Source of the DNA: Candidatus Omnitrophota bacterium
GTDB taxonomy: Bacteria; Omnitrophota; Omnitrophia; Omnitrophales; Aquincolibacteriaceae
Length of the DNA stretch: 64,000 nucleotides
Reading direction: 5' to 3'
Assembly (NCBI GenBank): GCA_043803685.1
Contig: JAZDJU010000072.1
Location: forward strand, 28,889-92,888
Under the pieces are notes generated by a model that searched no databases, was not told the origin of the DNA, and worked only from the letters and a program-made list of their open reading frames with translations. Position 1 is the stretch's first letter. Every line of letters starts with the position of its first letter. Both the position numbers and the translations under genes were made by a program. Below, in pieces: positions 19,467 through 38,183 of the stretch.

Positions 19467-20873
19467 TTACATCCCAGGCTTCATCTCGATCGAAGGCGCT
19501 TCCGGTCCTTTGCTCCCGAAGGCCCGCGGAAAAATATCATCCCAGTGGGCGGTCAGGCTGATCGTGAATGCCTGGGAATAAGAGTAGTAGTCCCCGTCGA
19601 CCGAGGAATTAAGGAGCGCCGCGTTCTCCCCGATGCTGTTATTGATGCTCCTCGTGAAATAGAACGAATTGTAATAGCAGATGTCCGCGGTCAGGTATTT
19701 ATTGATCTCGTAGCCCGCGCCGAGGCTGATCGCCAGGTGATTCGAGTCAGGGACGGCGGGGATGAACGATTTGTTGGGAATGGGGGTCCAATAGAACCAG
19801 CTTCCCCCGCGTAGCGTCAGCTTCTTGGTCAGTTTATGACTGACGCCGAGCTGGATCCCGAAGCTGTCTCGATAGTCCTTGTCCGCGGAGCGGATGTTGT
19901 TCAGGATGGTGTCATCCCTCACATTTCCGGACGGGTCTGCCACGAAATACTGGCGTTTATAGAGCGACCAATGAGACCATGTGAAATCCGCCTCGTAGTG
20001 GGTCTTTTCCGTGGGCTGATACGCGTAGGCCCAGGTCATGTTCATCGGAAGCGTGACCTTGGTATGAACACCGGTTTCATAATTCCGGAGTCCCAGACCG
20101 CCGAAGGCCGCGGGGACATTGGAATTCTCCACCTTCGCCAAGCCGCTCGTTTTCACGATCACCGGGCTTCGGAAATAATAACCCAAACGGTGCTTCGGAG
20201 TGAGCTTGATCAAGGTGCCCAATTGCCATCCCCAGTGGTTTCCCGAGGTATTGATCCGGATCTGTCCGTCAGGGCTTGTGACGCCGAACGGGGCGGTAAT
20301 GAGATTGTTCGGATAGCCCTGAACCCCGCCGAAATCCGTGATCCGGTACCACACCGGTCCGGCGCCGACGGAGATCTTGTCGGTGACCTTGTAGGCGATC
20401 GTGGGCTTGATCGAGAACATCTTCAGATAATTGTTCCAACCCGCGTAATGCACCGCCGGATCATTCGAATTGTACTTGGTCATCATTCCAAAGGGCGAAT
20501 CAAAGCCGACGCCGAGACCCAAGCGGTCGCAGAACATTTTCCCGGGATTGACGGTCATATAGCCGGTGGGAACCAGGTTGAGCGTTCCGGAGCTGTGGGT
20601 GTCGCCCGTCCTGTTGTTATCTTTGTATGTGATCAGGCTGATGAAATTCGCGTTTGTCTGGAACTGCACGCCCGGGAGGTCCGCGATGCCGGCCGGGTTA
20701 TACGAAATGGCCGCGGGTTCGTCTGGTGAGGCCGTTCCTGCGCCGCCCAAAGCTAGCTGTTTGGCGCTGAACGAGGCGTTCTCATAACCGCCGGAACCGA
20801 CGGCGAAAGCAGAAGAGGGGGCGAGAGAAATAAAGGCGATCAGGATCGCGATCGACAGGATCTTTTTCAGCAT
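19467..20873 (-). CDS. FadL/OmpP1-family outer-membrane transport protein
   Basis: Signal peptide; ALGGAG...AISYNPAG hatch; GFDSPFG; IPAVPDS; amphipathic beta strands. Confidence 0.88.
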   Translation of the reverse strand: MLKKILSIAILIAFISLAPSSAFAVGSGGYENASFSAKQLALGGAGTASPDEPAAISYNPAGIADLPGVQFQTNANFISLITYKDNNRTGDTHSSGTLNLVPTGYMTVNPGKMFCDRLGLGVGFDSPFGMMTKYNSNDPAVHYAGWNNYLKMFSIKPTIAYKVTDKISVGAGPVWYRITDFGGVQGYPNNLITAPFGVTSPDGQIRINTSGNHWGWQLGTLIKLTPKHRLGYYFRSPVIVKTSGLAKVENSNVPAAFGGLGLRNYETGVHTKVTLPMNMTWAYAYQPTEKTHYEADFTWSHWSLYKRQYFVADPSGNVRDDTILNNIRSADKDYRDSFGIQLGVSHKLTKKLTLRGGSWFYWTPIPNKSFIPAVPDSNHLAISLGAGYEINKYLTADICYYNSFYFTRSINNSIGENAALLNSSVDGDYYSYSQAFTISLTAHWDDIFPRAFGSKGPEAPSIEMKPGM

Positions 20874-21721: not shown

Positions 21722-21967
21722 ATGGAGCATGTCACGGAAACACCCAAGATCTCGCCGCAAGATCCGATGTCGAATGGTACCTGGGTCCAGATCACCTTCA
21801 TCCTTGATCCTGAACTCTACCAGATCCTTTGGGAACGCGCTGAGGAGGAACATCGGACCCTTTCTTGCCTCGCCCGCGAAGCCGTTATCCATTTTTTGAA
21901 AAGAACAAACATTCCGCATTTAGCCAGAAAAACCTCTGTCGCGAAAAATTCTGAGGACCTTCTATGA
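21722..21967 (+). CDS. Ribbon-helix-helix (CopG-like) DNA-binding protein
   Basis: RBS AGGAGG; VQITFILDPELYQILWERAEEEHRTLSCLAREAV; ATGA overlap with the giant gene. Confidence 0.7.
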   Translation: MEHVTETPKISPQDPMSNGTWVQITFILDPELYQILWERAEEEHRTLSCLAREAVIHFLKRTNIPHLARKTSVAKNSEDLL

Positions 21968-24900
21968 ACTTTAACTGTTCTTGCCCGCACAAATTTACTG
22001 CACTATTTGTCGCTTTTGTTTTTGGTTGGAACCAGATCCTTTGGGCGGGGGAGATCCTTCCGAAGGATTATGTCGTTCCTTCGACGCAGCTTTTCGCGAC
22101 AACGCCCGTGACAGGAACGATCCAGGCGATCACAACGCCGCCGGTCAAGACTTTCACAACGACAGACTTTTTATCAAATGAACAGGGGCCTTTGTCACCT
22201 TCCACTCCCGCCGCCAACGATATCACTCACTATGATTACGAGCGTTATGATTTTCAGGATGCGCTTGATCTTCTGAGGCCGGAGTTCTCAACCGCGGTGA
22301 TCGTGAAAAAGATCACGGTTGAAGACCTGAGAAAGCTCGCGGAGCTTCCATTCGAAACCGGTGTGATCGTACTTCATGGGGAGATCGTTCTCTTTACTTC
22401 CGGGGGTAAAAGCGAACTCGGGATCCTTTCGGCCGCCAGTCAGTTGATTAAAAAAGCCACTTTTGTTTCGCATACGCATACCGGAGGATCCTTGGTGACG
22501 GGACCTTCCGAATTCGATCTCGCTCATGCGGGGGATCAAGAGTATGTGATCACTGAGGAAGGTGTTTATGCCTACGATCGCACAGGGCTTCTTAACAATG
22601 GGGACGTCTGCTCCTATGGCACCTACATTGAAAAACTCAATTGGGCTGTTAAAAATGCCATGCCCGAAAAGGATCAGGTCGAAGCCCGGAAAGACCTGAA
22701 CGCCTTTATCGCCGATCAGGATCTCTATAACGCTTCTTCCGACCGTAAAGTGTTTCGTTCGGCAGAACCCCCTGCGGTATCAGGAACGACTTATTCAGCG
22801 AGCGCGATCACGGCGTTATCATCGACTCCTTTAGCTAGCGCTAGTTTGAAGACGACATTGCCAGGGCAGAGTGCCAACGGGACGAACAATTTCGTGCAGT
22901 ATGATTCGACGAAGTTCTCATTTGAATACAGTCTGCCTGTGGAGCCGGAGACGGTGATTGATGCGGACAGTGAGAATGATGATTTTGCGGTGGGACAGAT
23001 CTCGTGGGGTTATTTCAACAGTTCGAATGTCTTTGTGGGGAGCGGAGCTAATGTGGGGAGTCCGTTAGTGATGGCACTAAGGGCGGATCACGTGATGCGA
23101 GCGAAGGTAGAGGTGGTGGACACGACGGGAGCGAAGGCGCAGTTTTGGGCGGATCTTTCAACGGGTTACCAGAATTTTAGTTTTGATGTCAGCGGGTTGA
23201 ACGAGTCGAGTATCGCGTCGGTGACCGTGGTGTCGGATGTGGCACATGGTGGGACGAGCGGTAAGATTTACGTGATCACGAATGGTCTGAGTTATACGCC
23301 AGTGGTGGCGGGGACGACGTATTCGGCGAGTGCGATTACAACGCTACCTTGGGCTCCTGCAGCAACTTCCAGCCTTGGTACGACCTCTGCTGGGCAGAGT
23401 GCCAACGGGACGAACAATTTTGTGCAGTATGATTCGACGAAGTATTCCTTTCAATACAGTCTGCCTGTGGAGCCGGAGACGGTGATTGATGCGGACAGTG
23501 AGAATGATGATTTTGCGGTGGGACAGATCTCGTGGGGCTATTTCGATAGTTCGAACGTGTTTCAGGGGACGGCTGGGAATGTGGGGAGTCCATTGCTGAT
23601 GGCGTTAAGGGCGGATCACGTGATGCGAGTAAAGGTGGAGGTGGTGGATACGACAGGTGCGAAATCCCAGTTTTGGGCAGATCTTTCAACGGGGTACCAG
23701 AATTACAGTTTTGATATCAGCGCGTTGAATGAATCGAGCATTGCCTCTGTGAGCGTGGTGTCAGATGTGGAGCATGGCGGAACCGCAGGGAAAATTTACG
23801 TAATAACGAATGCCCTGAGTTACACGCCTGTGGTGGCGGGGACTGTCTACAATCTTGCCAACATTTCGAGGTTTTTCGCGAGTCCGGTGGTGGGATCAAG
23901 TCACGGGACGACAGTAGCCTCAGACACAGCGACGGTGACAGCGACGCAGACGAGTTCGACGATGTTTAATGTGAATTCCCAGGTGAATGTGGCTGGGGAA
24001 TACACAACGAGTACGATCGGATGGGGCTCATTTAATAGTTCGAACGTGTTTGTGGGGACCGGGGAGACTTTAGCGAATACCGTGATGTTTGCGTTGAACG
24101 GGACCGCCGGGAAGAAGTTGAAGGTGGAGTTTGTTAACACATCGGGGGTGAAGAAGTCGTTCTGGGTGACGCCTGCTACGACGCATCAGAATTATGCATT
24201 TGATATTACGGGGCTTGGGACGGTTGGGATGATCAATTTCGTGAGTAGCGAGGTGGGGACGACGGCGTACACGGTGGAGACGAAGGGGTTGGCTTTTACT
24301 CCGCCTGTCCAATATTTTTACGACAGTGCCGGCAATCTTATCCAGAAGATCGTCAGTACCTATTATGACAACAAAAAACCTGCCACGGTCGATGACTACC
24401 GGTATTCCAACGGGCTTCAGACCTTTCTATATCAAACGACATACGATTCGGCTGGCCTGAAGACTTCTTATAAATCGACTACGTATCATACCGACGGGAA
24501 AACGGTCAAAATATTCACGGCCTATTTCTTCAGCGCAGGTGTTAAAACAGGCTATAACCAGGCCACTTTTAGTGCTGCGGGCGTGAAGACTCAGGATAGC
24601 GCTGTGACGTATTATCCGAACGGTACGACGGTGAAGACTTCCGAAAGCCGTCCCTTTGTGAACGGTGTGCCCACGAATTATTATCAAATCCAATACGATT
24701 CTTCAGGATTAATGATCGGAAGCAGCTCAACAGCCTATTACCCGGACGGAAGAACGGTAAAGTCATCTCAGGAAGATTATTATGAAGTAGGAGTTCGGAC
24801 AAGTAAGAAAAGTTCCTCATATACGATAAGTGGAGTGAAGACCCAGGATTGGAATGTCACATATGACTCGAATGGCACCACGGTTAAGACGATCGATGAC

Positions 24901-27900
24901 ATTCGATATGGGAATAACCTTCGGACCTATTTGTACCAGACGGTCAACGATTTCGCCGGCGTAAAGACCCATTATATTATGACGACTTATCATCCGGATG
25001 GTCAGACGGCCAAGGTGGTTAAGGATGAGTATTACGCAGGGGCGGTCAGAGCGGGCTACAACCAGGCGACCTACAGTACCACGGGTGTGAAAACGCAAGA
25101 TAGTGCGGTGACGTATTATCCGAATGGTACGACCATGAAGACTTCCGAAAGCCGTCCTTTTGTAAATGGTGTACCCACGAATTATTATCAGATCCAATAT
25201 GACCCTGCCGGACTAAAGACCGGAAGCACTTCAACAGCTTATTATTCAGATGGAAAGACGGTCAAGTCATTTCAGGAAGATTTTTATGAGAATGGTGTCA
25301 GAACACGAAAATATTGTACAGATTACAATACTGCGGGTTTGCGGACGCATCTGCTGATCCAGGTCTATTACACGGATGGAAAGACAAAAACCTCAGACGA
25401 TTACGATTACACCGGATCGCGTCTTATTAAACGCATCTTAAAGGAATATAGCTCGGCCGGGATTGAAACCAGTAGCTTAACGGAAAATTATCCCCCGCAG
25501 ATTCTCACGAACACGAGCGGATACGCTGTGCGTTACACGGCGGACGGAAATAGTTACGAAGAAACGATCTCTCTTACGGAAGGTTTGAACGCGGTCCAGA
25601 AGACAGTGAATGGTTATAACGGAACACCGGTTCTGATCGAATGGAAGATCACGCTGGACACCGTACCACCCGAGATCCTTTTCACTTCACCTTCGGTCAC
25701 CAACCAAAAAAATTACACTTTGACCTATACCGCCGACGGTATCGCCAAGACGAAAGTTTTTGCAGATCTCGAGGAAGGAGTCAACGCGCTTTCTATTGCG
25801 GAGGTTGATCCGTCTGGCAATCAAACCATTGCGAATTGGAATGTGACGGTAGATACGATCGCCCCAATCGGTGCGATCACCATCAATGGAGGAGCTTTGT
25901 ACACGTCCTCAAAAGAAGTAGCGTTAGATCTTTCGGGGGCTGATACGGGGTCAGGCGTGAACCAAATGAGATTTACTATTGATAGCGGGACAACTTGGAC
26001 GGCTTGGGAGTCATTCGCTGCAACAAAGGGGCTGACGCTTGCGGGTGCGGACGGGGATAAAGTCATCCAATATCAGCTTCGGGATCAAGTTGGAAATCTT
26101 AGTCAGGTTTATTCTGATTCCATCGCGCTGAAGACAATCCCTGTCATTCAATTTACGTCCGCGACAGCGGTTACAAATTCCGAGTATTTACTGACCTATA
26201 CGGTCAACGGGACGGCTCAATCGGAGCGTTGGCAGCTTTCTGCGGGCGTGAATCCGATTTTAGTTCGAGTCCCGGGAGATTTTTCCACTTTCGTGAGACT
26301 TGACGTCACGCTCAATCAACCCGATATGACCCTTCCTGCGATGCCTGTTCTACCGACGCTTCCGGAGGGTCTCATTAGCGTGACGGCTCAAAACGGGCTT
26401 ATCATAAAATATGACGGGAGCACGATCGTTTCCGTCGAAAATCCAGGAGAATATCAGCTATATCTTCCTCAGTTTGACGTGAACGGTACGCTCACGGATG
26501 GAGTGTTTCAGTTTTCAAATGGCGATAAACTTCTTTATCAAAACTCCAAGCCGGTTCTTAAGATAACGAGTTCGGGAGAGAAAACCCTTTATGGCAGCAC
26601 GGGAATCGTAAATTCCGTGATCGAACCAGATGGGAGTCGGATTTGGTTCAGTTACAGGGTGGACGATCAGGGCCAAGTTCTTTCGGTTCTGTCCCGAGAT
26701 GCTTCTGCAACGAGCTTGTATGAAGGAGGCATCCCCTCCCGGATCCTGATGCAAGACGGTTCCGATATCCGTTATGAAGACGGTCTTTTGAGCAGTTATC
26801 GCGACGCAACCGGCAATCTCTATCAATACCAGATCGTGGAATTGCGGTCTTCCGGCACGATCACCGGTTACCGATCCATTTTGTCCGATGTCACGCCTGC
26901 GGGGAGCGCTTCCCCGATCCCGTTTTCCGCGATCTCGGCGGATCTTTCTCAATACCCGGCTATTCAAAGTACCCTGGGTAACAAGATCTCGACTGAGATC
27001 GATTATGACGCGAACTCGAAAATGACAAAGTTCATTTCGGGAAAAGGAGAGGTTCTTACGCTTCATAATCAACTGCCCGAGTATCTCACGGACTCGTCCG
27101 GTAATCTGAAACTCTTTGAAAGCACAGTGAATTCCGCAGGAACTCTTTCTTCGGTGGCTCTGACACAAAATAGTGTTCCTTCACAGGTTTTTGATGCCAG
27201 TGGGAATATCCGTTCCATTGCTTTGAGCGACGGAACGGTGTTTCAGGTTACGGATCACAAACTCGGGGCAGTCACGCTCTCCGACGGTAGCGTTCTGACC
27301 GATCTAAGGTGGAATGCTTCGACCCAGATCATGACGGATTATGTGAGAACGTACACGGACGGGACAAAGTCCATTTACGCCAATTCCCACATGGTCCGCA
27401 AGGAAGAGCCTAATGGAAACATTACGAGCTATATTGATCTGAACGGGGTCGATCAGCCGGATCTTATGACGACGGCCGATGGCCGGACGTATCACTTTAT
27501 TACTTTCCAGAACGCGCAAGGGCTTTGGGACCGGAAGACCGAACTTGTAAAAATGACACTTTCGGATGGCAGCCGTGTCGAGTTCGAGAATGGGAAACCT
27601 GTGCGTTATATCAAGAGCGAGCAGGTCCAACTCGACCCCCTTAGTGTTCCAATGCTTTCTTCTGATCGTTCCTATGTCGCTTCGGTAATCCTGTCGAACG
27701 CGGAATTGCGTTCTCTGACGATCGACTCCGCGGGAACGATTCTTTCAGGGGAGATTCTTTTTAATGACGGAACGCAATATTTCATCGAAAACGGCGCTCT
27801 TGTCAAACAGATCACGGCAGATGGGAAAATCGTAGAGGTAGAGACCACGGTCCCTCTTTCTTTTGAGAAGTCCATGCCGGTCAAACCGGAACCGCTTACT

Positions 27901-30900
27901 CCGGCTGAGGTCGATTACCGGAACGAATTGATTGATGCGCAGTTCCGTTATTTCACAGATCCGTTGGGGATCGATGCCGACAGCGGGATGCCGGTCGATC
28001 ATTATTTAAGTGACACTCATCAGCAATCGAGCTACAGCCAGGCGACGCTCGTAGGCTTTTGGGCGGAGATCCTGGCGACTATTGCGAGAGGAGATTACGC
28101 GCCTTCTTCGCTCGGCAGGGCCCAGGCTTTTCAAAAACTCGAATCGCTTCTCGCCGAACTCCAGAAAGTCCAGTCCCAGGCCGGATGGAACGGGATGTTC
28201 TCATTTTTTGGGATCTCGAAACAGACACAGCCTGTTTACGATCAAAGCGGAAATCAGACCGGGACGAAACTTGTTGTGAGCTATAGCCGGCAGTTTGACA
28301 ATATTGGCATTGGCGATAACCTCAATCTTTCGGTGAGTCTCGCGAGTGTTGTGGGCGCTTTGTCGGGAATAACACTTGAGGATCCGACGCTCAGTTCCCA
28401 AAGGGACGCGATCGTTACACGCATTCATTCGATCCTCTCTCTTCAAGATGCCGGGTACGCGAAATTTTACGATACCTCGGCCAATCAGTTTTATAGTGTC
28501 CGCAAATTTGATTCAAATGGGGACTCTGCTTTTGATAGTGGGCATATGGATCGTGTGTTCAACGAGTTCTTACCGGGACTTGTGTGGCTCGCGGCCCGTA
28601 ATCCGAGTTACAAACCTGCGCTAGATAATCTGGACGTGACGATCCGGCCCTATACAACGCGGGACGGTACGAGGATCGAAAACGCCGTGCCTTTTGACGG
28701 CGGAGCTTTTCAGATGTTTTGGCCGCTTATGCACGTCGACGAAACGAAGTATCCCGAGTTTAACGTTGCGCTTAGCAACTTTCTTTATTCTCAGGCGGAA
28801 TTTGTCAGTCAGAACGGTATCCCCGGTCTTCTTTCGGCAGGTGACGATCCCGGGAATGGTTATAACGGGAAGATCGGATTAACGTCAGCTTCCGAGACGG
28901 ATGACCCTCTATCGACAAGTGTTGGCTCTCTCTATGGAACAGCGGGTGCATTTTTGCTAGCGCCCCATTACACGCTTCAATTTTTAAAGAATATCGAGGC
29001 GAAATTCCCCGGGGTCCGGACGAACTCGGGGCTTGTGGATTCCATAGCGCTGAGAAACGGACAGGCTGTTTATTCCAAGCAAGCCTTTGGCGTTGATCAA
29101 GCGTCGTTCATTCTTTCACTGCTTGGAACCAGCCAGAATTATTTCACACAATATCTCCGTCAAAAGGGCTTAGAGGATCAGTTTGATGCTCTTTATAAGG
29201 GGATGAGTTTTAATCTCGCGCCTGCAATCGCTCAAAATCCACCGCCGCCGAATTTCGATCTTTCTACCCCGGCTCTTTACAGTGGGATCCATCAACAGCC
29301 GGATGGTCTGGCAAATGCGCTTACCAAACGTAGTTCTTTTATTCCCATGATCGTGGATCCCGAGCTTGGGGAGGGGCGCATCTATGATTATCTGGACCCA
29401 GAGGGGAATTTTCATCATACCGAGATCGAATTCGGAACAGGAAGAGATCTCAAAAAGATGCCTCTTGCTCAATATTTGCTTCTTCCGGGGCGGGGCGATA
29501 TGTCGCGCTTGCTTTTTAGCGCGGTCAGTTTGGATCTGTTGAATGAAGCGACGACTCAGGGTGCTTTCTACACGCCTTCCTATGGATATGCGAACAGTTC
29601 CCTCGCAACAGATCCCATCGGAGAGGTGCGTCATATCGATTTTAATCTTCAGAGGATCTCGTCCCCGGTCGGACTTTATGCGACCTACAATAACCGAGAT
29701 CTGTCGCAGTACGATTACATTTCGGTTCCGGTACGCCTCGGTTCTAATGCTCCGGAAGGGGTAAGCCTCAAATTTGAGTTTGCGGGGATGGGAGAAGTTT
29801 TTGTGACGGGAGCACTGACTCGGGATTGGCAGTATGTACAGATTCCGGTGAGCAAACCCGCAGGCCTTTTGCAGAAGATCGCCGTCGTCATTCAATCACC
29901 GGATGGTAAGGCCGTGAGTGGGGATGTTTATCTTGGGCCGTTGAGCGCTTTCAAAGTCCGGACTTCGAACCAGATGGACTGGCAGGCCATGCTCGGGAAA
30001 AGTGATTCTGAGATCCGGAGTTTTCTCAAAAGTAAAATATCGCGTCAATCCACAGGCGGGGGCGTCATGGAAGCGGATGAGGTTCTCGAGGATTTCAAGC
30101 TGGATTCCGATGGGAAGCTTGTGGACGGAGTGTTAAAGCGGGCTGACGGAAGTATTCAGTATTTCCGTAATGGGCAGCTTATGAAGTGGGTTTTTCGAAA
30201 TGGCAGGACCGTCCTTTTTGAAAAGGGTCTCGCGACGTTCATTCTGGATCTGGCGCAGGGCAAGCTTCAAGAGGGGCGTTTTTATTACGACAGTACCTTC
30301 CGTGGCGAGATCCAGTCCTTCGTGATGCAGGATAACGACAGCAAAAAGATCTATGGATCTGATGGAAAGCTTCAGACTGTGGTCAAGAATGGATGGATCA
30401 CCCATTTCAAGGATGGCAAGATCGATTCGATCGCGCTTTCGGAATCCACGCTGACGCGACTTGTTTTTGCGGAAGATCAAAGTTTGCTGCGGGCTCACGT
30501 CAAAATGAACGATGGACGTGAGTTCGACATTGATCAGGGAGGGGAACAGGCTGTTGTAAGACCCAACGGAGCCAAGGTCTACTACAAGGGATCCCGGATC
30601 GTGGGAATTGAGACTTCCCAGAACGGGAGAACGGACTTTACCTACGCGACAAATTCAAGCGGACAACTGACGGGTGTTACCGCGTCCTTTCATGAAACGG
30701 TGATGGATAGCCTGGGTCATTCAAGTATCGCGTTGCGGACGATGTCACTTTTTGAATATCTTTTGCGGCCGGAGCGTAGTTTGGAGAAGCAGGAGATCCT
30801 CAGGGAACCGCCCCAGCAGATCCTTCCGATTGCTAATATCGCAGGATTTAGCGTGGGGTATCTTCCAAGCGGTGAGATCACCAACGGTCAAAAATTTTAT

Positions 30901-33900
30901 CAAGACGGGGTTCCTTACGGCTGGTATCAATTTCGTTATAACAGTTTAAGTGGACCCACCCTTGGGATGGTTGCCGGGAATTATACGCAGCCGGTCAGCC
31001 TTGGGGCCTATGATTTTATCCAGGTGACGCTTGAGCAGGATCCGGGCATGACGTGGAACCAGGATTTTAATTTTGTTTTGAAAACTCCGACCCGGCAGAC
31101 CTTGTATACATTTGAACTCAATAACGCGCCGAACCAGTATCAATCCTTTGGGTTTTCATTGGCGGGGAAGTCCGGGAGCGAAGGGGAGATCACGCTCGAA
31201 GTGGTCCGCGAAGCTGGCGGCGTCGGGAAGACCGGGCAGGTTAACATTAAGGATATTTCCTATCTCGCGATCAAGAGCCTCGATCATCCACTTTGGGAAA
31301 ATGATGTTTCTATCAATGCTACGGAGCTCCAGGGATTGAAGATCGAGGCGGATACTTATACGGATATCGGCGTGGAAATAGCGTCACACGTCCCACTCTC
31401 TTATGACAAGCTTGTTCCGCTTTTGGATATGCCCTCTTCGGTCTCTTATTCGGACAAAGATTCGACGCATCTCGGCCAGCTCACAGGCTTCAGGCGTTTT
31501 GACGGCGCCGAAGTGAGTGTGAGCGGTTCCGATGTCACGAAAGTGGTCCTTCCCGACGGGACGGTGAATGAATATTCCCAACAAGGGAACGTCTCTCAAG
31601 GAACGATCAAGGATGGCTCCGGATCCGGCGCCGCGGTGGGCAGTCTCAATTACCACTATGGCGAGCTTCGAAAGATCACCCAATCCGACGGCAAGGTCTA
31701 TGAGCTGAGTTATGAATTCGATGCCCAGGGTGACCCGATCACGCTCATCAAAGACGATCTGACGGGGGACGTCCGCCGGTTTAAAGACGGAAAACTCATC
31801 GAATCCATATCGAGCGGCGGCGTGAGTACGACTTATGAGTACCAGAACGGAGAATTGATCGGCGCGGAGCTTTTCTATAAAAATCGGGTGCTTCAAAGTT
31901 CTAGCTATCAATTCATAGGCGATGAAACACAGGTCACGGATGCCAAGGGTACAACGTGGTATTACGATGCGAATGGGAACCTGAAGAAGCATCTCACAAA
32001 AGACGGCTATCTTTATGCCTATTCGGATTATTCCGCGACACCTCAAGATCTTCCCGAGATGCCGCAGGATTTCAAGTCGGCGAATGTTTTTAACGCGACC
32101 GATCTTCGCGCTGTGAGTCTGATCGGTTATGAGGCCAAGGACGGTATGCAGGTCAGACAAGGGGATGAAGGTCTTGTGGAAATCCTTTCTCCTGCTGGGG
32201 ACAAGGCCGTCAACGTTGTCTTGGATGATGACCGGAAGATCAAAAGCGGGCAGATCCAATTCGCAAATGGATTGATCCTCAGGATCGAGAATTATCTTCC
32301 CGTGGGAGGTCGATTGACGGATGGAATTCTGTTTTCGGCGAATTTTCCAACGGGGAATGGGAAGGTCACTCTTCTGCAGGACTCCACGGGTGCCTATACC
32401 GGTAGCATGTTCGAGAAGAACGGAACTTATTACAGCTATGATGCTTATGGTTTTCTGACGAAGATATCTTCCCCGAATGGCGAGTCCCAGCAATTCACCT
32501 ACTTTCTGGAGGCCTCCGCAAGCGACGCCTATGGCGTGTTGAATCGTCAACAGGTCGCGTTTAACGGCGTTCCTTTTCCTGAAGAAATGACAATCCAGGC
32601 GGGGAATGATCTTGTCTTGAGCGGGGTGAGCGGTGTTTTGGCGAAGCGCGAGGGCGACACCGGTTTTATTATTAGCGCGTATGATGATTCCTTGAACCAG
32701 TGGAAAGTCCTTTCCGGAAAATTCTCTTCAGACGGTGATCGCATTCTTATGAGAAACTTTCTTAAGAACCTCAAGCCCGGACAATATGTTGCTGTTGCGG
32801 TCAAAGATCCCGATTTTTCAAGAGCCGGAGAAGATATCCTGGCGCTTTTAGAGGGGATCGGATCCGGACAGGTTCGGACGGCCAGCGCCGGGAATCAAAC
32901 CTGGTGTTTGTTCGGAAATGAATATTTGAAAAAGGGCGAAGGCCGGGAACAGGCCGGAGGAAGTTCTTTCTCAACCGTCACGGAAGAAAAAATATTTTCC
33001 GTTCTCGCTGAGGGAAGCAATCCCGTTTATAACAGAATGAATATGTTTTTGTCCGTGCCGAAAACAGCGGCGGACGCCTACGCATCATTCCTGAAGGCTT
33101 ACGAGCCTAACAAACCCAAAGGGGACCTTGAGGAGATCACGGTTTACAGCAAAGAAAACCAGATCGTTTATTCTGAGAGCGTGAACGGCGTCCGTACGTT
33201 CTATGACAAAGGAAAGCCGCGCGAAACGTACACAAGTGACGGGGAGCTTCTCTATACGCACGAATACGGTTGTCCCAATGGTGGGTGCCCGGACCCGAAC
33301 GATCCCTATCTGGCAAGAGTGACGCTTGTCAAAGCCCGTCTTGATTTTGAGACGGAATCCGCGAAGGCGCATCAGCAGATCGAACAGGTCAAATTTGACG
33401 CGCTTCACCAACTTGCGGAACAAGAAGAGGTCGCTCAGGCCGGCATTAAACAGGAAGTCTCTAACAGCATTGCCGTGCTTGATGCCTATATCAGTCAGCT
33501 GCAGTCCCAGCGCTATCGGAGCGTAAAGGTCTGCAAAAGCGCCTTTTTGGGATTCGGGAAAAAGTGTCATGAAGAACAATATGATGTCCCGGGGATTGCC
33601 GGCATGATCAGCGAAGCGCAAAATCAAAAGGTGGAGCTTCTCCAGAATATCCAGCCCGGGCAGATCGCGACGATTCCCACGTTGATCGCGCAAAAAAAAC
33701 TCGAGATCGAAGCCGCGACTACTCAAAAAATGACGGATCTCGCCGCGCAGGAAGCGTCCGTTCTTCACGATATTTATGAACGGGAAACAGCGCCGGTTCT
33801 TTCCGACATTTACAGACGCTTGCTGGGCCGGGACCCTTCCAAAGAGGAGGTCTCCTCCGAGATCGCGCGATTCGGGACGATACAGGCGGTCGATCTGAAC

Positions 33901-36900
33901 CGGACCGTTACAGAGATCAAGAGCTCGAATGAATTTCAATCCAAGACCAACGACAAAGCCGCGATCATCAACCAGGTTCAGACATTCCTTAACTCGTATG
34001 TCGCAACTGCCCATGATCCGGCCGCACGTGCTGCTCTTGCGCAGTCCCTTCGGCTCGATCCCTCCGAGATCGTGGATCTCCGCCAGGAAGAGGTGACGGC
34101 GATCATCGGTTGGCTCGAGGCTCGGGATCTTCATTTCGGGCAGTCCGCATTTCTGTCACTCAAAAGCATGCTTTTCTCCCGCGGGATCGATGTGCCCATG
34201 GTGACGCTTGGGGTTGAAACCGTGCTTGTGGATATTCTCACCGGCACGATCAACAAGTTTACTGAAGGGGATCTTGTGCTTTCTGTATTTTCATTTCAAC
34301 GTGCGGCAAAAATCCACGGAGCGGACATTACCGGGGTCCGCTACGCTTTAAGCGACCTTAAGGCGCTTTATCAATCAGTCTGTGGTTTGTTGTCTGTGGA
34401 CTGTGGTCTAAGAATGATCGCGCATGTAGCGGGAAACCACTTTGTGGTGATCACGGCTGTGACGGCAGAGGGCATCACCTATTTTGAGACCAATCAAGGC
34501 CATGCCGGTGAGCTTGTTAACGGGACTTATGATCAATTCATGAAAGTTTGGGATACGGGGAACGGGACAGGGCATCTTGTGGTTTTTAAGGATCAGGCCA
34601 TTACGGCCAAGGTGATCCATGATCAAACAGCGATGAAACTCCGGGGAGCATTTTTCCCTTTGGTATGGCTTGCCTGGCTTGCGGTCGCTTCGTTTGTTCT
34701 GTCGGTGGCAAGCGTTGTCGTGTCTTATATTAGTCCGACTCTTGGCAAGATCCTGGGGTATGCGGCCATGGTGGTCGGGATCGTTGCGATCGCGGCGAGC
34801 GTTGTGAATTTCGCGGTCCAGGGATTTAGCATGGCGCTTAATTCCATTAATAGCGTCGGGTTCTTGCAGTCGGTCCAGAACGGATTTACGATGCTAGGGA
34901 ATGCGATCTGGGAAGGAGTGGCGCATGTCGGCCAGTTCCTGAAGCAAGGGTTTACGTTCCTTGCGGATGCTTTTACGGGAAATTTCAGCGGTTTGGGTGC
35001 CGGGATCACACAGATCGGCAAATTTTCGATGGACGGCGTAAAGGTCATGTTGGATTCCTCCGGCGTGCTTGTGAAACAAAACCTGACTTTCGGGCAAATG
35101 GTGGGCCGGAGCATGATCTCTGCAGCGATCAATATCCCGGTGTCCAAAGGACTTGAAGGCCTCGGCATCGATCCCAGAATGGCTCGGCTTGCCGGCGCGT
35201 TCGTCTCGGGGGGAGTGGTCGGGCTCGGTGGAGGCGCGACGGGATTTCTTCAGTCAGGGGTGCAGGCGTATCTGCTCCAAGGGGTTTCCGAGATAGGACT
35301 CAAGCTGGATCTGCCTCCGCCAATTACCGCGGCATTGTCCCTTGCGGTCAACGCGTCTCTGACCGGTCTTTTTAGCTCCAATTTCGTTCTTAAAGAAGCG
35401 CTTCCTCAGATCTTCCCCCAATTTACTCAGCAGCTGACCCTTGGCGGCATCGAACTCCTCGGCTGCTCCCTCGCTCTCGATCCCCGCATTACGCAGTTGA
35501 TCGGTTTAACGACCGCCGCAGCCGTGGGAGGCGTCACAAGAGATCTTTTGAATCCGAATGGCATGACGTCTTTGTGGCAGTCCATTCAAAACGCCGTGTT
35601 AAGCCGGGAAGTGGCGGGGGGGATCGTTTCGATAGGGGCTGGATTTGTGGTCCATGAGTTGGGATTGGATCAATCGTTGCTTGGATCCTTGTCGAGTCGT
35701 CTTGTGGCTGGAGCGTTTAGTGATTTTCTGGCCTCGCCGAAGAATTTCAGTCTCGCCGCCAGCATCATCAAGTCGACGGACGAATCTTTTAGTGAGTTTT
35801 TCGATCCTGCATTACTGCCACAGCTTTTGACCGCCGTGATGGATCATGGTCTGGCGGATGGGATCGAACAATATGCCACCATGCTTTTTACCCGGGAAAC
35901 TATTAACGAATTTACGTCCGCAGGAATGTCGATCGGCCAATGGATCCAAAACAGCATGTCTAATGCGGAAGACGTTGTTTACAACGGACAGTCCCTGAAA
36001 CGTTTGCGTCTTCTTCAGAACGGGAAAGCGATTAATTTCTTTTATGTTCCCAAGAACGACAAACTGGAACTTTCAATGATCTATGAGGAATATGCCAACG
36101 GCCGTCGGCCAAGACTCATAGAATTTGTTACCGATGAGCAGGGCAGGATTACGGAAGCTTATGTGGAGGAGCAGGCTGTGGATGGGACGATCCATCGCGA
36201 CAAACTTGATGCGAATGGGATGATTAAAGAAGTGACATTTCGAGATTGGAATGAGGAAACCTACGCGAAGCTCTCGTTTAATAGCGCCGGCGGTCTCGAG
36301 TTCACCAATTACACGCTGGGTATTACGGATCATCTTTCCGAAAAAGGTGATTTTACGTTTAATTTTACCGCGGCACCGGATTTTCATGATTTTGATCAGC
36401 TGCTTTTCAATTACGATACGAATCTGACGCCGGAACAAAAAAGCAGCCTGGCAATGTTTACCTATGGGAACGGTTTCTGGAACCAGCACGTAGCACCCGA
36501 TGCGACTTCGCCGGTTATGGCGAATTTTATGGGTAAGATGGCTCAGGATCAGGCCATGACGGGACACCCGGGGATCGTGTTGTTCGATCAAAACGGGAAT
36601 ATCGCGTTGGATTCCTATGGGAATGTTCTGACCACAGCATCGTTACCAATAGGACTTTACAAGGAAACCGGACTGGTGGGGAATATCCTGAATTGGGCGG
36701 CCAATACTTGGCTTGGTGCCACTTTCATGCGGGACTCCATTGAGGCGCAATATAGGAACTATTTCGATCTTATTAAATTGAATCAAAACAGATTCGGCTT
36801 AGATCCGAATATTCCATTCGTCCATTTCGCTCACTCGGGAGACTTTCAGCCATTGATCCAGGCGCTTGAGCATATGCCAGACCCATATCGCGAAAAGATC

Positions 36901-37329
36901 ACAACGGTCGTCGCTTACGGAACTCCCTACATTGGAGATGGGATTATCAATGATCCATTTCTCAAAACATTGATCCGCGTTAAGGGAGAATATGATGCTG
37001 TCCCGTTCCAGGAACTCGGTCAAAAATTTCAAATTGAAGACGCGAATGGTAATGTGCGGCCCGTTGAAAACCAGTACAATATTGAGATCTTAAAGGCCGG
37101 GCATAGCGATTTTAGTTGCGCTTCCGGGCCGAGTGGCAATGCGTGCTCTGATTTCGTTAATCAACAGACTAGCATGTTTATGAGGGATTTAAATTTAGCG
37201 GCTAATGATAAAGCGGACCTAGAGTATTTATTAACCTCCAATTTAATTCCTGGTGTGCGCTACGACTCGGTTAATAAGCTGGTAATAGTGAATCCCAACG
37301 AATATGTATCTCCAAATGGTGCCCGATGA
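21964..37329 (+). CDS. Giant (5121 aa) secreted multidomain protein, polymorphic-toxin-like
   Basis: Uninterrupted 15.4-kb ORF with signal peptide, internal repeats and several recognisable enzymatic motifs (see findings). Confidence 0.92.
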   Translation: MNFNCSCPHKFTALFVAFVFGWNQILWAGEILPKDYVVPSTQLFATTPVTGTIQAITTPPVKTFTTTDFLSNEQGPLSPSTPAANDITHYDYERYDFQDALDLLRPEFSTAVIVKKITVEDLRKLAELPFETGVIVLHGEIVLFTSGGKSELGILSAASQLIKKATFVSHTHTGGSLVTGPSEFDLAHAGDQEYVITEEGVYAYDRTGLLNNGDVCSYGTYIEKLNWAVKNAMPEKDQVEARKDLNAFIADQDLYNASSDRKVFRSAEPPAVSGTTYSASAITALSSTPLASASLKTTLPGQSANGTNNFVQYDSTKFSFEYSLPVEPETVIDADSENDDFAVGQISWGYFNSSNVFVGSGANVGSPLVMALRADHVMRAKVEVVDTTGAKAQFWADLSTGYQNFSFDVSGLNESSIASVTVVSDVAHGGTSGKIYVITNGLSYTPVVAGTTYSASAITTLPWAPAATSSLGTTSAGQSANGTNNFVQYDSTKYSFQYSLPVEPETVIDADSENDDFAVGQISWGYFDSSNVFQGTAGNVGSPLLMALRADHVMRVKVEVVDTTGAKSQFWADLSTGYQNYSFDISALNESSIASVSVVSDVEHGGTAGKIYVITNALSYTPVVAGTVYNLANISRFFASPVVGSSHGTTVASDTATVTATQTSSTMFNVNSQVNVAGEYTTSTIGWGSFNSSNVFVGTGETLANTVMFALNGTAGKKLKVEFVNTSGVKKSFWVTPATTHQNYAFDITGLGTVGMINFVSSEVGTTAYTVETKGLAFTPPVQYFYDSAGNLIQKIVSTYYDNKKPATVDDYRYSNGLQTFLYQTTYDSAGLKTSYKSTTYHTDGKTVKIFTAYFFSAGVKTGYNQATFSAAGVKTQDSAVTYYPNGTTVKTSESRPFVNGVPTNYYQIQYDSSGLMIGSSSTAYYPDGRTVKSSQEDYYEVGVRTSKKSSSYTISGVKTQDWNVTYDSNGTTVKTIDDIRYGNNLRTYLYQTVNDFAGVKTHYIMTTYHPDGQTAKVVKDEYYAGAVRAGYNQATYSTTGVKTQDSAVTYYPNGTTMKTSESRPFVNGVPTNYYQIQYDPAGLKTGSTSTAYYSDGKTVKSFQEDFYENGVRTRKYCTDYNTAGLRTHLLIQVYYTDGKTKTSDDYDYTGSRLIKRILKEYSSAGIETSSLTENYPPQILTNTSGYAVRYTADGNSYEETISLTEGLNAVQKTVNGYNGTPVLIEWKITLDTVPPEILFTSPSVTNQKNYTLTYTADGIAKTKVFADLEEGVNALSIAEVDPSGNQTIANWNVTVDTIAPIGAITINGGALYTSSKEVALDLSGADTGSGVNQMRFTIDSGTTWTAWESFAATKGLTLAGADGDKVIQYQLRDQVGNLSQVYSDSIALKTIPVIQFTSATAVTNSEYLLTYTVNGTAQSERWQLSAGVNPILVRVPGDFSTFVRLDVTLNQPDMTLPAMPVLPTLPEGLISVTAQNGLIIKYDGSTIVSVENPGEYQLYLPQFDVNGTLTDGVFQFSNGDKLLYQNSKPVLKITSSGEKTLYGSTGIVNSVIEPDGSRIWFSYRVDDQGQVLSVLSRDASATSLYEGGIPSRILMQDGSDIRYEDGLLSSYRDATGNLYQYQIVELRSSGTITGYRSILSDVTPAGSASPIPFSAISADLSQYPAIQSTLGNKISTEIDYDANSKMTKFISGKGEVLTLHNQLPEYLTDSSGNLKLFESTVNSAGTLSSVALTQNSVPSQVFDASGNIRSIALSDGTVFQVTDHKLGAVTLSDGSVLTDLRWNASTQIMTDYVRTYTDGTKSIYANSHMVRKEEPNGNITSYIDLNGVDQPDLMTTADGRTYHFITFQNAQGLWDRKTELVKMTLSDGSRVEFENGKPVRYIKSEQVQLDPLSVPMLSSDRSYVASVILSNAELRSLTIDSAGTILSGEILFNDGTQYFIENGALVKQITADGKIVEVETTVPLSFEKSMPVKPEPLTPAEVDYRNELIDAQFRYFTDPLGIDADSGMPVDHYLSDTHQQSSYSQATLVGFWAEILATIARGDYAPSSLGRAQAFQKLESLLAELQKVQSQAGWNGMFSFFGISKQTQPVYDQSGNQTGTKLVVSYSRQFDNIGIGDNLNLSVSLASVVGALSGITLEDPTLSSQRDAIVTRIHSILSLQDAGYAKFYDTSANQFYSVRKFDSNGDSAFDSGHMDRVFNEFLPGLVWLAARNPSYKPALDNLDVTIRPYTTRDGTRIENAVPFDGGAFQMFWPLMHVDETKYPEFNVALSNFLYSQAEFVSQNGIPGLLSAGDDPGNGYNGKIGLTSASETDDPLSTSVGSLYGTAGAFLLAPHYTLQFLKNIEAKFPGVRTNSGLVDSIALRNGQAVYSKQAFGVDQASFILSLLGTSQNYFTQYLRQKGLEDQFDALYKGMSFNLAPAIAQNPPPPNFDLSTPALYSGIHQQPDGLANALTKRSSFIPMIVDPELGEGRIYDYLDPEGNFHHTEIEFGTGRDLKKMPLAQYLLLPGRGDMSRLLFSAVSLDLLNEATTQGAFYTPSYGYANSSLATDPIGEVRHIDFNLQRISSPVGLYATYNNRDLSQYDYISVPVRLGSNAPEGVSLKFEFAGMGEVFVTGALTRDWQYVQIPVSKPAGLLQKIAVVIQSPDGKAVSGDVYLGPLSAFKVRTSNQMDWQAMLGKSDSEIRSFLKSKISRQSTGGGVMEADEVLEDFKLDSDGKLVDGVLKRADGSIQYFRNGQLMKWVFRNGRTVLFEKGLATFILDLAQGKLQEGRFYYDSTFRGEIQSFVMQDNDSKKIYGSDGKLQTVVKNGWITHFKDGKIDSIALSESTLTRLVFAEDQSLLRAHVKMNDGREFDIDQGGEQAVVRPNGAKVYYKGSRIVGIETSQNGRTDFTYATNSSGQLTGVTASFHETVMDSLGHSSIALRTMSLFEYLLRPERSLEKQEILREPPQQILPIANIAGFSVGYLPSGEITNGQKFYQDGVPYGWYQFRYNSLSGPTLGMVAGNYTQPVSLGAYDFIQVTLEQDPGMTWNQDFNFVLKTPTRQTLYTFELNNAPNQYQSFGFSLAGKSGSEGEITLEVVREAGGVGKTGQVNIKDISYLAIKSLDHPLWENDVSINATELQGLKIEADTYTDIGVEIASHVPLSYDKLVPLLDMPSSVSYSDKDSTHLGQLTGFRRFDGAEVSVSGSDVTKVVLPDGTVNEYSQQGNVSQGTIKDGSGSGAAVGSLNYHYGELRKITQSDGKVYELSYEFDAQGDPITLIKDDLTGDVRRFKDGKLIESISSGGVSTTYEYQNGELIGAELFYKNRVLQSSSYQFIGDETQVTDAKGTTWYYDANGNLKKHLTKDGYLYAYSDYSATPQDLPEMPQDFKSANVFNATDLRAVSLIGYEAKDGMQVRQGDEGLVEILSPAGDKAVNVVLDDDRKIKSGQIQFANGLILRIENYLPVGGRLTDGILFSANFPTGNGKVTLLQDSTGAYTGSMFEKNGTYYSYDAYGFLTKISSPNGESQQFTYFLEASASDAYGVLNRQQVAFNGVPFPEEMTIQAGNDLVLSGVSGVLAKREGDTGFIISAYDDSLNQWKVLSGKFSSDGDRILMRNFLKNLKPGQYVAVAVKDPDFSRAGEDILALLEGIGSGQVRTASAGNQTWCLFGNEYLKKGEGREQAGGSSFSTVTEEKIFSVLAEGSNPVYNRMNMFLSVPKTAADAYASFLKAYEPNKPKGDLEEITVYSKENQIVYSESVNGVRTFYDKGKPRETYTSDGELLYTHEYGCPNGGCPDPNDPYLARVTLVKARLDFETESAKAHQQIEQVKFDALHQLAEQEEVAQAGIKQEVSNSIAVLDAYISQLQSQRYRSVKVCKSAFLGFGKKCHEEQYDVPGIAGMISEAQNQKVELLQNIQPGQIATIPTLIAQKKLEIEAATTQKMTDLAAQEASVLHDIYERETAPVLSDIYRRLLGRDPSKEEVSSEIARFGTIQAVDLNRTVTEIKSSNEFQSKTNDKAAIINQVQTFLNSYVATAHDPAARAALAQSLRLDPSEIVDLRQEEVTAIIGWLEARDLHFGQSAFLSLKSMLFSRGIDVPMVTLGVETVLVDILTGTINKFTEGDLVLSVFSFQRAAKIHGADITGVRYALSDLKALYQSVCGLLSVDCGLRMIAHVAGNHFVVITAVTAEGITYFETNQGHAGELVNGTYDQFMKVWDTGNGTGHLVVFKDQAITAKVIHDQTAMKLRGAFFPLVWLAWLAVASFVLSVASVVVSYISPTLGKILGYAAMVVGIVAIAASVVNFAVQGFSMALNSINSVGFLQSVQNGFTMLGNAIWEGVAHVGQFLKQGFTFLADAFTGNFSGLGAGITQIGKFSMDGVKVMLDSSGVLVKQNLTFGQMVGRSMISAAINIPVSKGLEGLGIDPRMARLAGAFVSGGVVGLGGGATGFLQSGVQAYLLQGVSEIGLKLDLPPPITAALSLAVNASLTGLFSSNFVLKEALPQIFPQFTQQLTLGGIELLGCSLALDPRITQLIGLTTAAAVGGVTRDLLNPNGMTSLWQSIQNAVLSREVAGGIVSIGAGFVVHELGLDQSLLGSLSSRLVAGAFSDFLASPKNFSLAASIIKSTDESFSEFFDPALLPQLLTAVMDHGLADGIEQYATMLFTRETINEFTSAGMSIGQWIQNSMSNAEDVVYNGQSLKRLRLLQNGKAINFFYVPKNDKLELSMIYEEYANGRRPRLIEFVTDEQGRITEAYVEEQAVDGTIHRDKLDANGMIKEVTFRDWNEETYAKLSFNSAGGLEFTNYTLGITDHLSEKGDFTFNFTAAPDFHDFDQLLFNYDTNLTPEQKSSLAMFTYGNGFWNQHVAPDATSPVMANFMGKMAQDQAMTGHPGIVLFDQNGNIALDSYGNVLTTASLPIGLYKETGLVGNILNWAANTWLGATFMRDSIEAQYRNYFDLIKLNQNRFGLDPNIPFVHFAHSGDFQPLIQALEHMPDPYREKITTVVAYGTPYIGDGIINDPFLKTLIRVKGEYDAVPFQELGQKFQIEDANGNVRPVENQYNIEILKAGHSDFSCASGPSGNACSDFVNQQTSMFMRDLNLAANDKADLEYLLTSNLIPGVRYDSVNKLVIVNPNEYVSPNGAR
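22780..24305 (+). repeat. Internal tandem ~176-aa beta-rich repeats of the giant gene (two close copies, one diverged)
   Basis: GTTYSASAIT...GQSANGTNNFVQYDSTK...VEPETVIDADSENDDFAVGQISWGYF...SYTPVVAGT repeated with long stretches of DNA identity. Confidence 0.85.
24390..25320 (+). repeat. Duplicated YD/MORN-like repeat block in the giant gene
   Basis: KTQDSAVTYYPNGTT(V/M)KTSESRPFVNGVPTNYYQIQYD occurs twice, within many TYY.DGKT units. Confidence 0.8.
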
Positions 37330-38183
37330 ATAAACCTCTTTTTTTATTATTTATGATATTTATTGTTTGTCCTCATTTAGGATCAGCTGATTCCGGGGCA
37401 TCAAAAACTCAACCCAATCAATATCAGAAAGCTGTAAATGCTCAATCTCAGTATCATGCTTTGCGTACGCAGGGCAATCGATTGCTTAACGAAGGTAGAT
37501 ATCCCGAATCTCTTATCTGTCATGAAAAAGCATTTAAAATGGCGGAAGGAACAAGCCTAGAGGCTGTTTCAAGAAACAAGTTAATGATTTTATATGAGAA
37601 GCTTGGTAGTTATTCGAAAGCTTTAGGGCAATGCCAGTGGTTTCTAACTCGATCTAATGGAGATTCTCCGCTTTGGGATGATTGGGTGAAAACTAAGCAA
37701 CGTCTTCTGCGAAAAATTGAGGCGCAGAAGCGTGGGGAGAAGATAGCAGAGCCTAAGCCTGCGTCTTCAGGGACTAAGGCGATTCGCAATGTTGTTGATT
37801 TTGAAACCGCGTCTTATGCTGATCAAAAAGAATATCTTGAGAAGAAATTCCCCGAGAATACGGAGATTTTAAAACTTTCAAAACAGGCATTATTAGCCGA
37901 ACATGCAGGCAAATTCGCTGAAGCCAAAGAGTACTATGAGCAATTATTGTCACGCAAAGAGGATGTGACCGCTACTCAGGGAGAGGGCGCTTGGCCCATG
38001 CTTCATTGCGCTGTTCAGCGCACCTCGGAATTGACCGGCGATGAGGCTCGTGAGAAAGAAATGCTTGGCTGGATTAAAGCGAATATGCTCGATCCTCAAG
38101 GCCAGTTTCATCAATCTCTTTCCAATCTTATGCTTGACGTGATCGATCATCTGAATAAACAGATCAAGAAATACCAGCTTTAG
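37326..38183 (+). CDS. Exported TPR-like protein, probable immunity or partner of the giant protein
   Basis: ATGA overlap with the giant gene; signal peptide; helical TPR-like segments (GRYPESLICHEKAF, GKFAEAKEYYEQLL); AT-richer DNA. Confidence 0.7.
   Translation: MNKPLFLLFMIFIVCPHLGSADSGASKTQPNQYQKAVNAQSQYHALRTQGNRLLNEGRYPESLICHEKAFKMAEGTSLEAVSRNKLMILYEKLGSYSKALGQCQWFLTRSNGDSPLWDDWVKTKQRLLRKIEAQKRGEKIAEPKPASSGTKAIRNVVDFETASYADQKEYLEKKFPENTEILKLSKQALLAEHAGKFAEAKEYYEQLLSRKEDVTATQGEGAWPMLHCAVQRTSELTGDEAREKEMLGWIKANMLDPQGQFHQSLSNLMLDVIDHLNKQIKKYQL

Follow-up and report, generated by a model that had tools for sequence, protein, structure and literature searches.

A modular N-terminal leader with a conserved terminal box on large extracellular-type proteins of the Omnitrophota

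The TPS domain (PF05860) stands at the N-terminus of very large exoproteins, directly after the Sec signal peptide; once Sec has exported the protein, an outer-membrane transporter recognises the domain. Substrates of the accessory Sec system also require a stretch of the early mature region, the accessory Sec transport (AST) segment. The Omnitrophota are uncultivated, ultra-small and partly predatory bacteria, and giant surface proteins are their most striking feature. Here we describe an N-terminal leader in three proteins encoded on a stretch of 64,000 nucleotides (the window) of contig JAZDJU010000072.1 from a Candidatus Omnitrophota bacterium (assembly GCA_043803685.1), and in related proteins across the phylum. 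The leader is lineage-specific, strictly N-terminal, modular, conserved at few points and present on a small set of large extracellular-type proteins.

An earlier note on the window had drawn attention to a motif, (S/T)x(D/A)Fx4-6PLS, in three otherwise unrelated secreted proteins, and had proposed it as a lineage-specific tag for surface proteins. The three peptides do exist, since they translate exactly from the DNA: TTTDFLSNEQGPLSP (22156-22200) in a giant secreted protein of 5121 aa (21964..37329), SNDFLHGGSPLSN (57316-57354) in a secreted protein of 428 aa without a known family (p428, 57118..58404, signal peptide aa 1-27), and STAFQLNDNPLSP (61417-61455) in a 962-aa open frame (p962, 61198..63999), a secreted repeat protein that is cut by the contig end and has its probable start at ATG 61198. 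All three open reading frames (ORFs) lie on the forward strand. Distances were counted from the likely AxA-type cleavage sites, with the N-termini read by eye and p962 read from its probable start. The Phe of the box lies 41 (giant), 41-43 (p428) and 45 (p962) residues behind the site, in line with the distance of about 40 residues given before, and the Pro/Thr-rich linker was also recovered as a P/T/S-rich stretch that precedes the box in all three. Beyond this N-terminal region the proteins are indeed unrelated, the best pairwise BLASTP E values being 0.10, 1.9 and 1.5. A comparison of p428 with PDB sequences gave no match (best E 0.94).

The motif proved to be real, and the earlier note had seen only its last box: the conserved unit is longer and includes a special signal peptide. 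Judged from the alignments, the three peptides form the final conserved box of a single modular leader, which takes up about 80 residues at the N-terminus. A search with the first 300 residues of the giant (40 relatives) found homologues of residues 90-290 and also, in ORFs built differently, matches confined to residues ~6-89. The leader starts with a basic n-region and a hydrophobic core ending I-F-x-W-N-Q-I-V-W-A, followed by an acidic mature start with the consensus (E/D)-G-I-L-P-x-(D/E)-Y, a Q-P dipeptide, a variable Pro/Thr/Ser-rich spacer and finally the box, T-T-T-D-F-L-x3-5-(S/G)-P-L-S. Among 47 leaders from relatives, both the Gln of the signal peptide and the Phe of the box were present in 100%; the Phe four residues before the Gln reached 96% and the -1 Ala 83%. 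Within the box the Leu was conserved in 89%, the Pro in 70%, the Leu of P-L-S in 96% and the Ser in 68%, and in the spacer columns the commonest residue reached 10-40% only. The distance from Gln to Phe was 41-50 residues in 35 of the 42 leaders measured; six of the seven larger values arose from the regular expression anchoring on an earlier Gln, and one (57 residues) was real. Within this genome, the copies encode the same residues by different codons (GAC TTT TTA, GAT TTT CTT and GAT TTC CTG), so conservation of the box acts on the protein.

In the giant, the signal peptide (aa 1-28, 21964..22047) ends F-G-W-N-Q-I-L-W-A. The mature N-terminus, placed by the leader alignment, begins G-E-I-L-P-K-D-Y and runs on as a Pro/Thr-rich spacer (aa 29-64, 22048..22155), and the box takes the form T-T-T-D-F-L-x5-P-L-S-P (aa 65-79). 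AlphaFold2 was run on the first 300 residues with a 41-row alignment. It gave a helix for the signal peptide (residues 9-28) and a leader of low confidence (predicted local distance difference test, pLDDT, 48-69), with values of 48-64 over the mature N-terminus and spacer and a predicted short helix on the box (residues 66-71, pLDDT about 69). The leader is predicted to be disordered. The signal peptide of p962, F-S-F-L-Q-I-V-P-T-G-W-A, is of a type also seen at two other leader loci (L014 and L053); that of p428 has no Gln at the otherwise invariant position, with spacing and box retained.

Scans of 18 aligned leaders against Pfam and NCBIfam returned no model (noise only, at E>=0.026), and a search of the ESM Atlas with residues 1-95 gave no usable match. 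Preprints on the giant proteins of Omnitrophota treat signal peptides and neighbouring type II-like secretion genes, and their passages on signal peptides, N-termini, motifs and secretion describe no conserved box (10.64898/2026.06.07.730766; 10.1101/2023.11.21.568195).

The pattern from the earlier note was run as a regular expression on 20,693 six-frame ORFs of the genome (2.89 Mb, 91% complete). All four matches fell no more than 90 residues after a start that resembles a signal peptide; the fourth belongs to a paralogue of the giant's N-terminus on another contig (C63). The control suggested in that note, a comparison with shuffled and other proteins, came out in favour of the box: it was present in 4 of the 655 signal-peptide-like ORFs (1000 shuffles gave 0.05 on average and never more than 2) and in none of the 2196 ORFs without such a start. 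This positional test is partly circular because the expression had been fitted to these same three sequences.

An independent test used profiles built only from the leaders of other genomes, which were scored on 27,694 ORFs of this genome. A profile of 47 such leaders recovered the C63 paralogue (E 4.9e-25), the giant (E 1.1e-18), p962 (E 4.9e-5, model positions 9-82) and, with the box half only, p428 (E 0.045). With a profile of 15 leaders, p428 ranked third (E 0.016) and p962 fifth (E 0.42); a motif-only profile of 20 columns was too short to be useful (p428, E 0.73). On the strength of these outside scores, the giant and p962 are regarded as secure members of the leader family. Probably p428 is a member as well, a divergent one and the weakest. 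The periplasmic enzymes of the window had been said to lack the motif, and none of the window's other signal-peptide proteins (FadL, DUF2092, MetA-type porin, LTXXQ, TPR and amidases) scored at E<1; ordinary periplasmic and outer-membrane proteins of the genome likewise gave no leader-profile score.

To map the leader across the phylum, an 18-row profile (A1) was applied to 401 sampled Omnitrophota genomes (E<=0.01, at most 13 candidates scored per genome), and 192 of these gave a match. The family of the window was covered almost completely (63 of 65 genomes), as were the other nine families of its order (27 of 30), with 1-7 mostly full-length matches per genome in the order (model positions 5-80); the five members of the order with no match were G140, G177, G025, G026 and G157. 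Elsewhere in the phylum 101 of 305 genomes matched, weakly and, among the matches listed, mostly with the signal-peptide half only. The leader is lineage-specific, as the earlier note had supposed.

In a distant family of the phylum, three loci (L111, L112 and L113) have a signal peptide of the type F-x-W-N/D-Q-I/L-x-W-A, with N-A-I-E-D-F-x-P...S-P about 40 residues later. The latter looks like a diverged form of the box, and the leader may for that reason predate the order.

Among 1.84 billion protein representatives, 53 matched at E<=1e-3 (14 at E<=1e-10), and every one of the 53 matches started at residues 1-71, in carriers of 55 to 7110 aa. Pfam domains were found in 16 of the 25 carriers scanned and none in the other nine. 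They comprised right-handed beta-helix (5), RHS repeats (4), Big_13 (4) and FG-GAP (2), and further Laminin_G_3, calpain C2 with DUF4214, GH115_C, DUF4082, ILEI and DUF5639; in the giant itself, ILEI is the sole Pfam match (E 2.1e-6). At the 30 best leader loci, a JAMM-like domain follows the leader in 10 and is absent within at least 387 residues in 18, the remaining two being too short. Because the matches are N-terminal only, and both the carrier domains and the domains directly behind the leader are mixed, the leader is, on sequence evidence, a module placed before unrelated extracellular-type cargo. Its carriers form a small subset (1-7 profile matches per genome) of large proteins with extracellular-type domains, which bears out the earlier suggestion of large surface proteins.

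The giant and 33 leader carriers (400 aa or longer) were compared at their C-termini for a shared sorting domain, such as the T9SS C-terminal domain or PEP-CTERM; no common tail was seen, although many of the carriers may be truncated. Among these, one subfamily shares a C-terminal domain and another ends ..ELT[KQ]. The last ~100 aa of the giant are common to the carriers P0012, P0013, P0029 and P0036. In p962, about seven tandem 14-residue repeats, N-P-I-E-K-V-I-V-G-P-S-P-V-T, lie directly behind the box (61480-61830), followed by four repeats of about 150-190 residues that each start L-P-P-A-V-Q, and the contig end cuts the protein at ..LLSKVLAEVT (63940-63999). Three leader carriers (P0009, P0041 and P0031) end ..L-T-E-L-T-K/Q or ..S-S-L-T-E, much like this cut end; such ends reflect either a motif common to the C-termini or a point where assemblies tend to break.

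By analogy, the leader would work most like the TPS domain, the motif-bearing signal peptides and the lipoprotein export signal (LES) of Bacteroidota, but it fails every defining feature tested. With TPS it has in common that it is an N-terminal module of very large exoproteins behind a Sec signal peptide, with short conserved boxes. The TPS domain folds into a beta-helix of ~250 residues, has NPNL/NPNGI boxes and goes with an adjoining TpsB gene, whereas the Omnitrophota leader has ~55 residues that are predicted to be disordered. The TPS profile did not match aa 1-300 of the giant, p428, p962 or the 18 leaders, the one TPS match of the genome lying on contig C129, and no ShlB (PF03865) gene was found within the window. 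The genome has five secretins and two TpsB (ShlB) genes; the TpsB on contig C103 has its own TpsA-like neighbour, and that on contig C49 a downstream neighbour of unknown family.

The YSIRK-G/S, ESPR and KxYKxGKxW (with AST) types also place lineage-specific residues inside the signal peptide of some large surface proteins. Their sequences are unrelated to the leader and they act at the Gram-positive cytoplasmic membrane or on type V proteins, whereas the most specific box of the leader lies ~41 residues into the mature chain, on proteins of a diderm. None of these three families was among the Pfam or NCBIfam matches of the 18 leaders up to E=1. The LES resembles the leader as a short linear motif behind the cleavage site that parts surface-exposed from periplasmic proteins. 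However, the LES depends on a lipobox Cys, from which it is no more than about 5 residues away, compared with about 41 residues for the Omnitrophota box, and a Cys at +1 is absent from the giant (..ILWA|GEIL), p428 (..VYA|IAPE), p962 (..GWA|ATRP) and the consensus (VWA|(E/D)G). Another parallel is the C-terminal domain of type IX secretion cargo with its PorV shuttle, a transferable tag on diverse large cargo that is bound by a FadL-type barrel, and the giant adjoins the only FadL gene of the genome. In that system, however, the tag is a folded C-terminal domain, and the FadL adjacency here concerns one syntenic locus in one family. The prepilin-type G|F-T-L-I-E box was absent from all 18 aligned leaders, in which the charged n-region directly precedes the hydrophobic core, and there is no conserved Gly-Gly in the leader that would point to a double-glycine route.

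The leader is probably an address tag. We infer each functional step, as well as the existence of a receptor, as follows. The carrier would be exported by Sec and its signal peptide removed by signal peptidase I, which would expose a disordered tag of ~55 residues. As a linear motif, this tag could be recognised through F-L and P-L, which would serve as hydrophobic anchors on a short helix. Recognition by one factor common to the carriers, in the periplasm or the outer membrane, would then commit them to the same later step, which may be outer-membrane passage or retention, and the tag may be clipped afterwards. We tentatively favour this reading, in which a post-Sec tag read by a shared factor would commit its carriers to outer-membrane passage or surface retention. 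A further-reaching version, in which the leader would be a linear and transferable tag that addresses very large proteins to a post-Sec route, so far undescribed, onto or across the Omnitrophota outer membrane, seems doubtful to us; the Gln, the ruler-like spacer and the F-L...P-L-S box would in that case be read jointly by unrecognised machinery. If the leader were such a linear export tag, diderms would have in it their first example of a short linear N-terminal signal that directs proteins other than lipoproteins to outer-membrane export, and sequence alone would suffice to list the secretome, for attack or for the surface, of these nanobacteria, which are putatively predatory. With the leader profile, proteins that are probably surface or secreted cargo can in any case be catalogued throughout an order, and the box is a concrete peptide for probing binding partners, cleavage and modification.

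Several observations weigh against a shared tag. The bare expression is not enriched genome-wide, because shuffled sequence matches the observed count: the four matches in the six-frame ORFs compare with a mean of 3.29 in 100 residue shuffles, 44 of which reached at least four. The genome counts given above overstate independence, because kin share descent. In the genus orthologues of p428, S-P-L-S is held at the same place and the D-F-L half degenerates to DL, NAW or LFL. Nor is the spacing universal: in the giants L009 and L027 the spacer is stretched to about 80 and about 105 residues. Eleven other giant secreted ORFs of this genome (2023-10,126 aa), all outside the window (contigs C59, C57, C67, C98, C114, C47, C80, C49 and C34), have no box and carry a different N-terminal module behind the signal peptide, I-P-x-E-[FL]-G ... 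H-I-Q-x-A-H-x-x-Y-E-A-Q-x-N-I; Pfam gave no match for the two of these N-termini that were scanned. Giant secreted proteins of this genome therefore fall into at least two classes, and large secreted proteins in general do not need the tag. The use of at least two N-terminal modules on large secreted proteins hints at parallel routes. Finally, neighbourhood searches found no partner gene that tracks the leader. Among ORFs within 1.5 kb of 63 leader ORFs, the only clusters were FadL, its antisense shadow frames and a small upstream ORF, and Pfam scans of 132 upstream ORFs at 20 leader loci outside the genus gave no recurrent secretion gene besides FadL (a T2SSE ATPase turned up at one locus, histidine kinases at three and PEP-CTERM proteins at one). 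Strong leaders also occur without a FadL match, in genomes G029 (E 2.9e-19) and G032 (E 3.0e-15), which are 91% and 94% complete, respectively.

A domain that directly follows the leader of the giant (aa ~94-260, 22243..22743, forward strand) bears on the alternative that the leader is a removable pro-segment. The D-F-L...P-L-S box would then mark the cut of a dedicated protease that releases or activates the mature protein, a cut that could be made in cis by a JAMM-like domain in a third of the carriers and in trans in the others. The giant's domain has the conserved E...HxH...S-x-x-D metal and catalytic signature of JAMM/MPN+ metalloproteases; in 41 homologues E131, H170, H172 and D185 are invariant and S182 is present in at least 90%. 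Of 41 related genomes 30 encode it, in some cases within ORFs of 13,000-39,000 aa, and with the signature intact it lies 15-60 residues behind the box at 10 of the 30 top leader loci and also follows the box in the two long-spacer giants. Strict N-terminal position and predicted disorder are likewise what is seen in pro-segments, and a passage of one preprint on C39 and S8 peptidase domains near the N-termini of Omnitrophota giants suggests processing (10.1101/2023.11.21.568195). In this genome (91% complete), however, no C39 peptidase (PF03412) was found. The JAMM fold assignment is itself weak: the top Foldseek and VIA matches are all JAMM proteins (5ld9, 1oi0, 1r5x and Rpn11), with Foldseek E values of 0.065-0.2, the best structural match has a Z of 4.7 (root-mean-square deviation 3.7 over 98 residues), a PDB profile search reached MPN at E 0.5 only, and a Pfam scan of the domain gave no match. 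Known JAMM enzymes cleave isopeptide or Gly-Gly-type bonds, and the box contains neither. The pro-segment explanation, which we consider unlikely, is further weakened because two nearly complete genomes, G013 (97%, six leader matches) and G014 (96%, two), have leaders and no JAMM-like match to the giant query.

If the leader acted instead at the level of Sec, its signal peptide and early mature region would pace or chaperone the inner-membrane translocation of very long chains, a role that has been proposed for ESPR and for the accessory-Sec AST segment. The invariant Gln and other conserved residues do lie within the signal peptide itself, the mostly fixed distance to the box would suit recognition at the translocon exit, and the signal-peptide half occurs alone on other giants of this genome (on C34, E 0.0012, and C47, E 0.031; model positions 3-40) and in partial matches phylum-wide. 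Against this, p428 and other carriers of 372-656 aa are not long, p428 has the box without the Gln-type signal peptide, and the 11 other giants do without the box, all of which makes a pacing role quite improbable in our view. A very unlikely explanation, to which the T-T-T before the box, the S-P-L-S within it, the Pro/Thr/Ser-rich surroundings and the wealth of glycan genes in the window would lend some colour, is that the box is a site of O-glycosylation or of covalent or non-covalent envelope anchoring and no transport signal at all. Each protein, however, has one box, never an internal one, whereas sequons usually recur, and the best-conserved residues of the box are hydrophobic (F, L, L) and not Ser or Thr. 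That the leader has no function of its own, being a cassette of promoter and signal peptide spread by recombination with the box as baggage or chance resemblance, we find scarcely credible. The frequency of the bare expression in shuffled sequence would agree with it, as would the low scores of p428 (E 0.016-0.045 only) and the difference between species of the genus, at the syntenic fadL locus, in what stands behind the leader (a JAMM-like domain or a beta-helix), suggestive of exchanged cassettes. Yet the box residues stand at 89-100% where the spacer up to the signal peptide has diverged to 10-40%, a recognisable relative of the box, E-D-F-x-P...S-P, stands behind this type of signal peptide in a distant Omnitrophota family, and the synonymous codon differences point to selection on the protein.

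The locus of the giant (window 15096-38183) reads hrcA-grpE-dnaJ-thioesterase-gpsA, divergent fadL, a small ORF, the giant and a TPR gene. The product of fadL is a FadL/Toluene_X outer-membrane barrel (19467..20873, reverse strand, Pfam 1.8e-49). Of the 17 other genus genomes with a FadL match, 13 have the gene beside a leader gene, and so does G021; among further loci it stands beside the leader in 5 of 11 of the same family, versus 0 of 9 in other families of the order. FadL was considered as the leader receptor and set aside, the adjacency being synteny of one locus within one family. A predicted complex of mature FadL (20-row alignment) with the mature leader (residues 28-83) had a score of 0.00 (mark 0.32), which weighs neither for nor against such a role. 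The gene order from hrcA through fadL to a leader giant is kept across several genera of the family (loci L121, L122, L123, L129 and L134), and the domain behind the leader at this locus varies by species, as if cargo had been swapped behind a fixed leader.

Immediately upstream of the giant lies the small ORF of 81 aa (21723..21967, forward strand), with a GGAGGA ribosome-binding site and a TGA that overlaps the ATG of the giant (ATGA). Homologues precede leader giants in G019, G009 and G001; by eye it resembles a ribbon-helix-helix protein, and Pfam gave no match. The stop codon of the giant is overlapped by a gene for a secreted TPR protein (37326..38183, forward strand), identified in the Pfam scan of the window. 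This protein was found in 10 of 19 other genus genomes, directly downstream of a leader giant in G014, G010 and G011, and in none of 21 genomes outside the genus. Since it did not turn up beyond the genus, it was rejected as a receptor; a tag that spans the order would call for a more widespread one.

Some further features of the surroundings were noted. The genes of p428 and p962 flank a LytS/LytTR pair, and HisKA_7TM histidine kinases with response regulators lie just upstream of leader genes at L138 (the paralogue on contig C63), L118 and L127. Just downstream of the giant-TPR pair is an IS200/Y1-type transposase gene (38276-38959). Between 40769 and 52131 the window contains five B12-binding radical-SAM genes in a run, one more radical-SAM gene, a methyltransferase gene and two GT2 glycosyltransferase genes.

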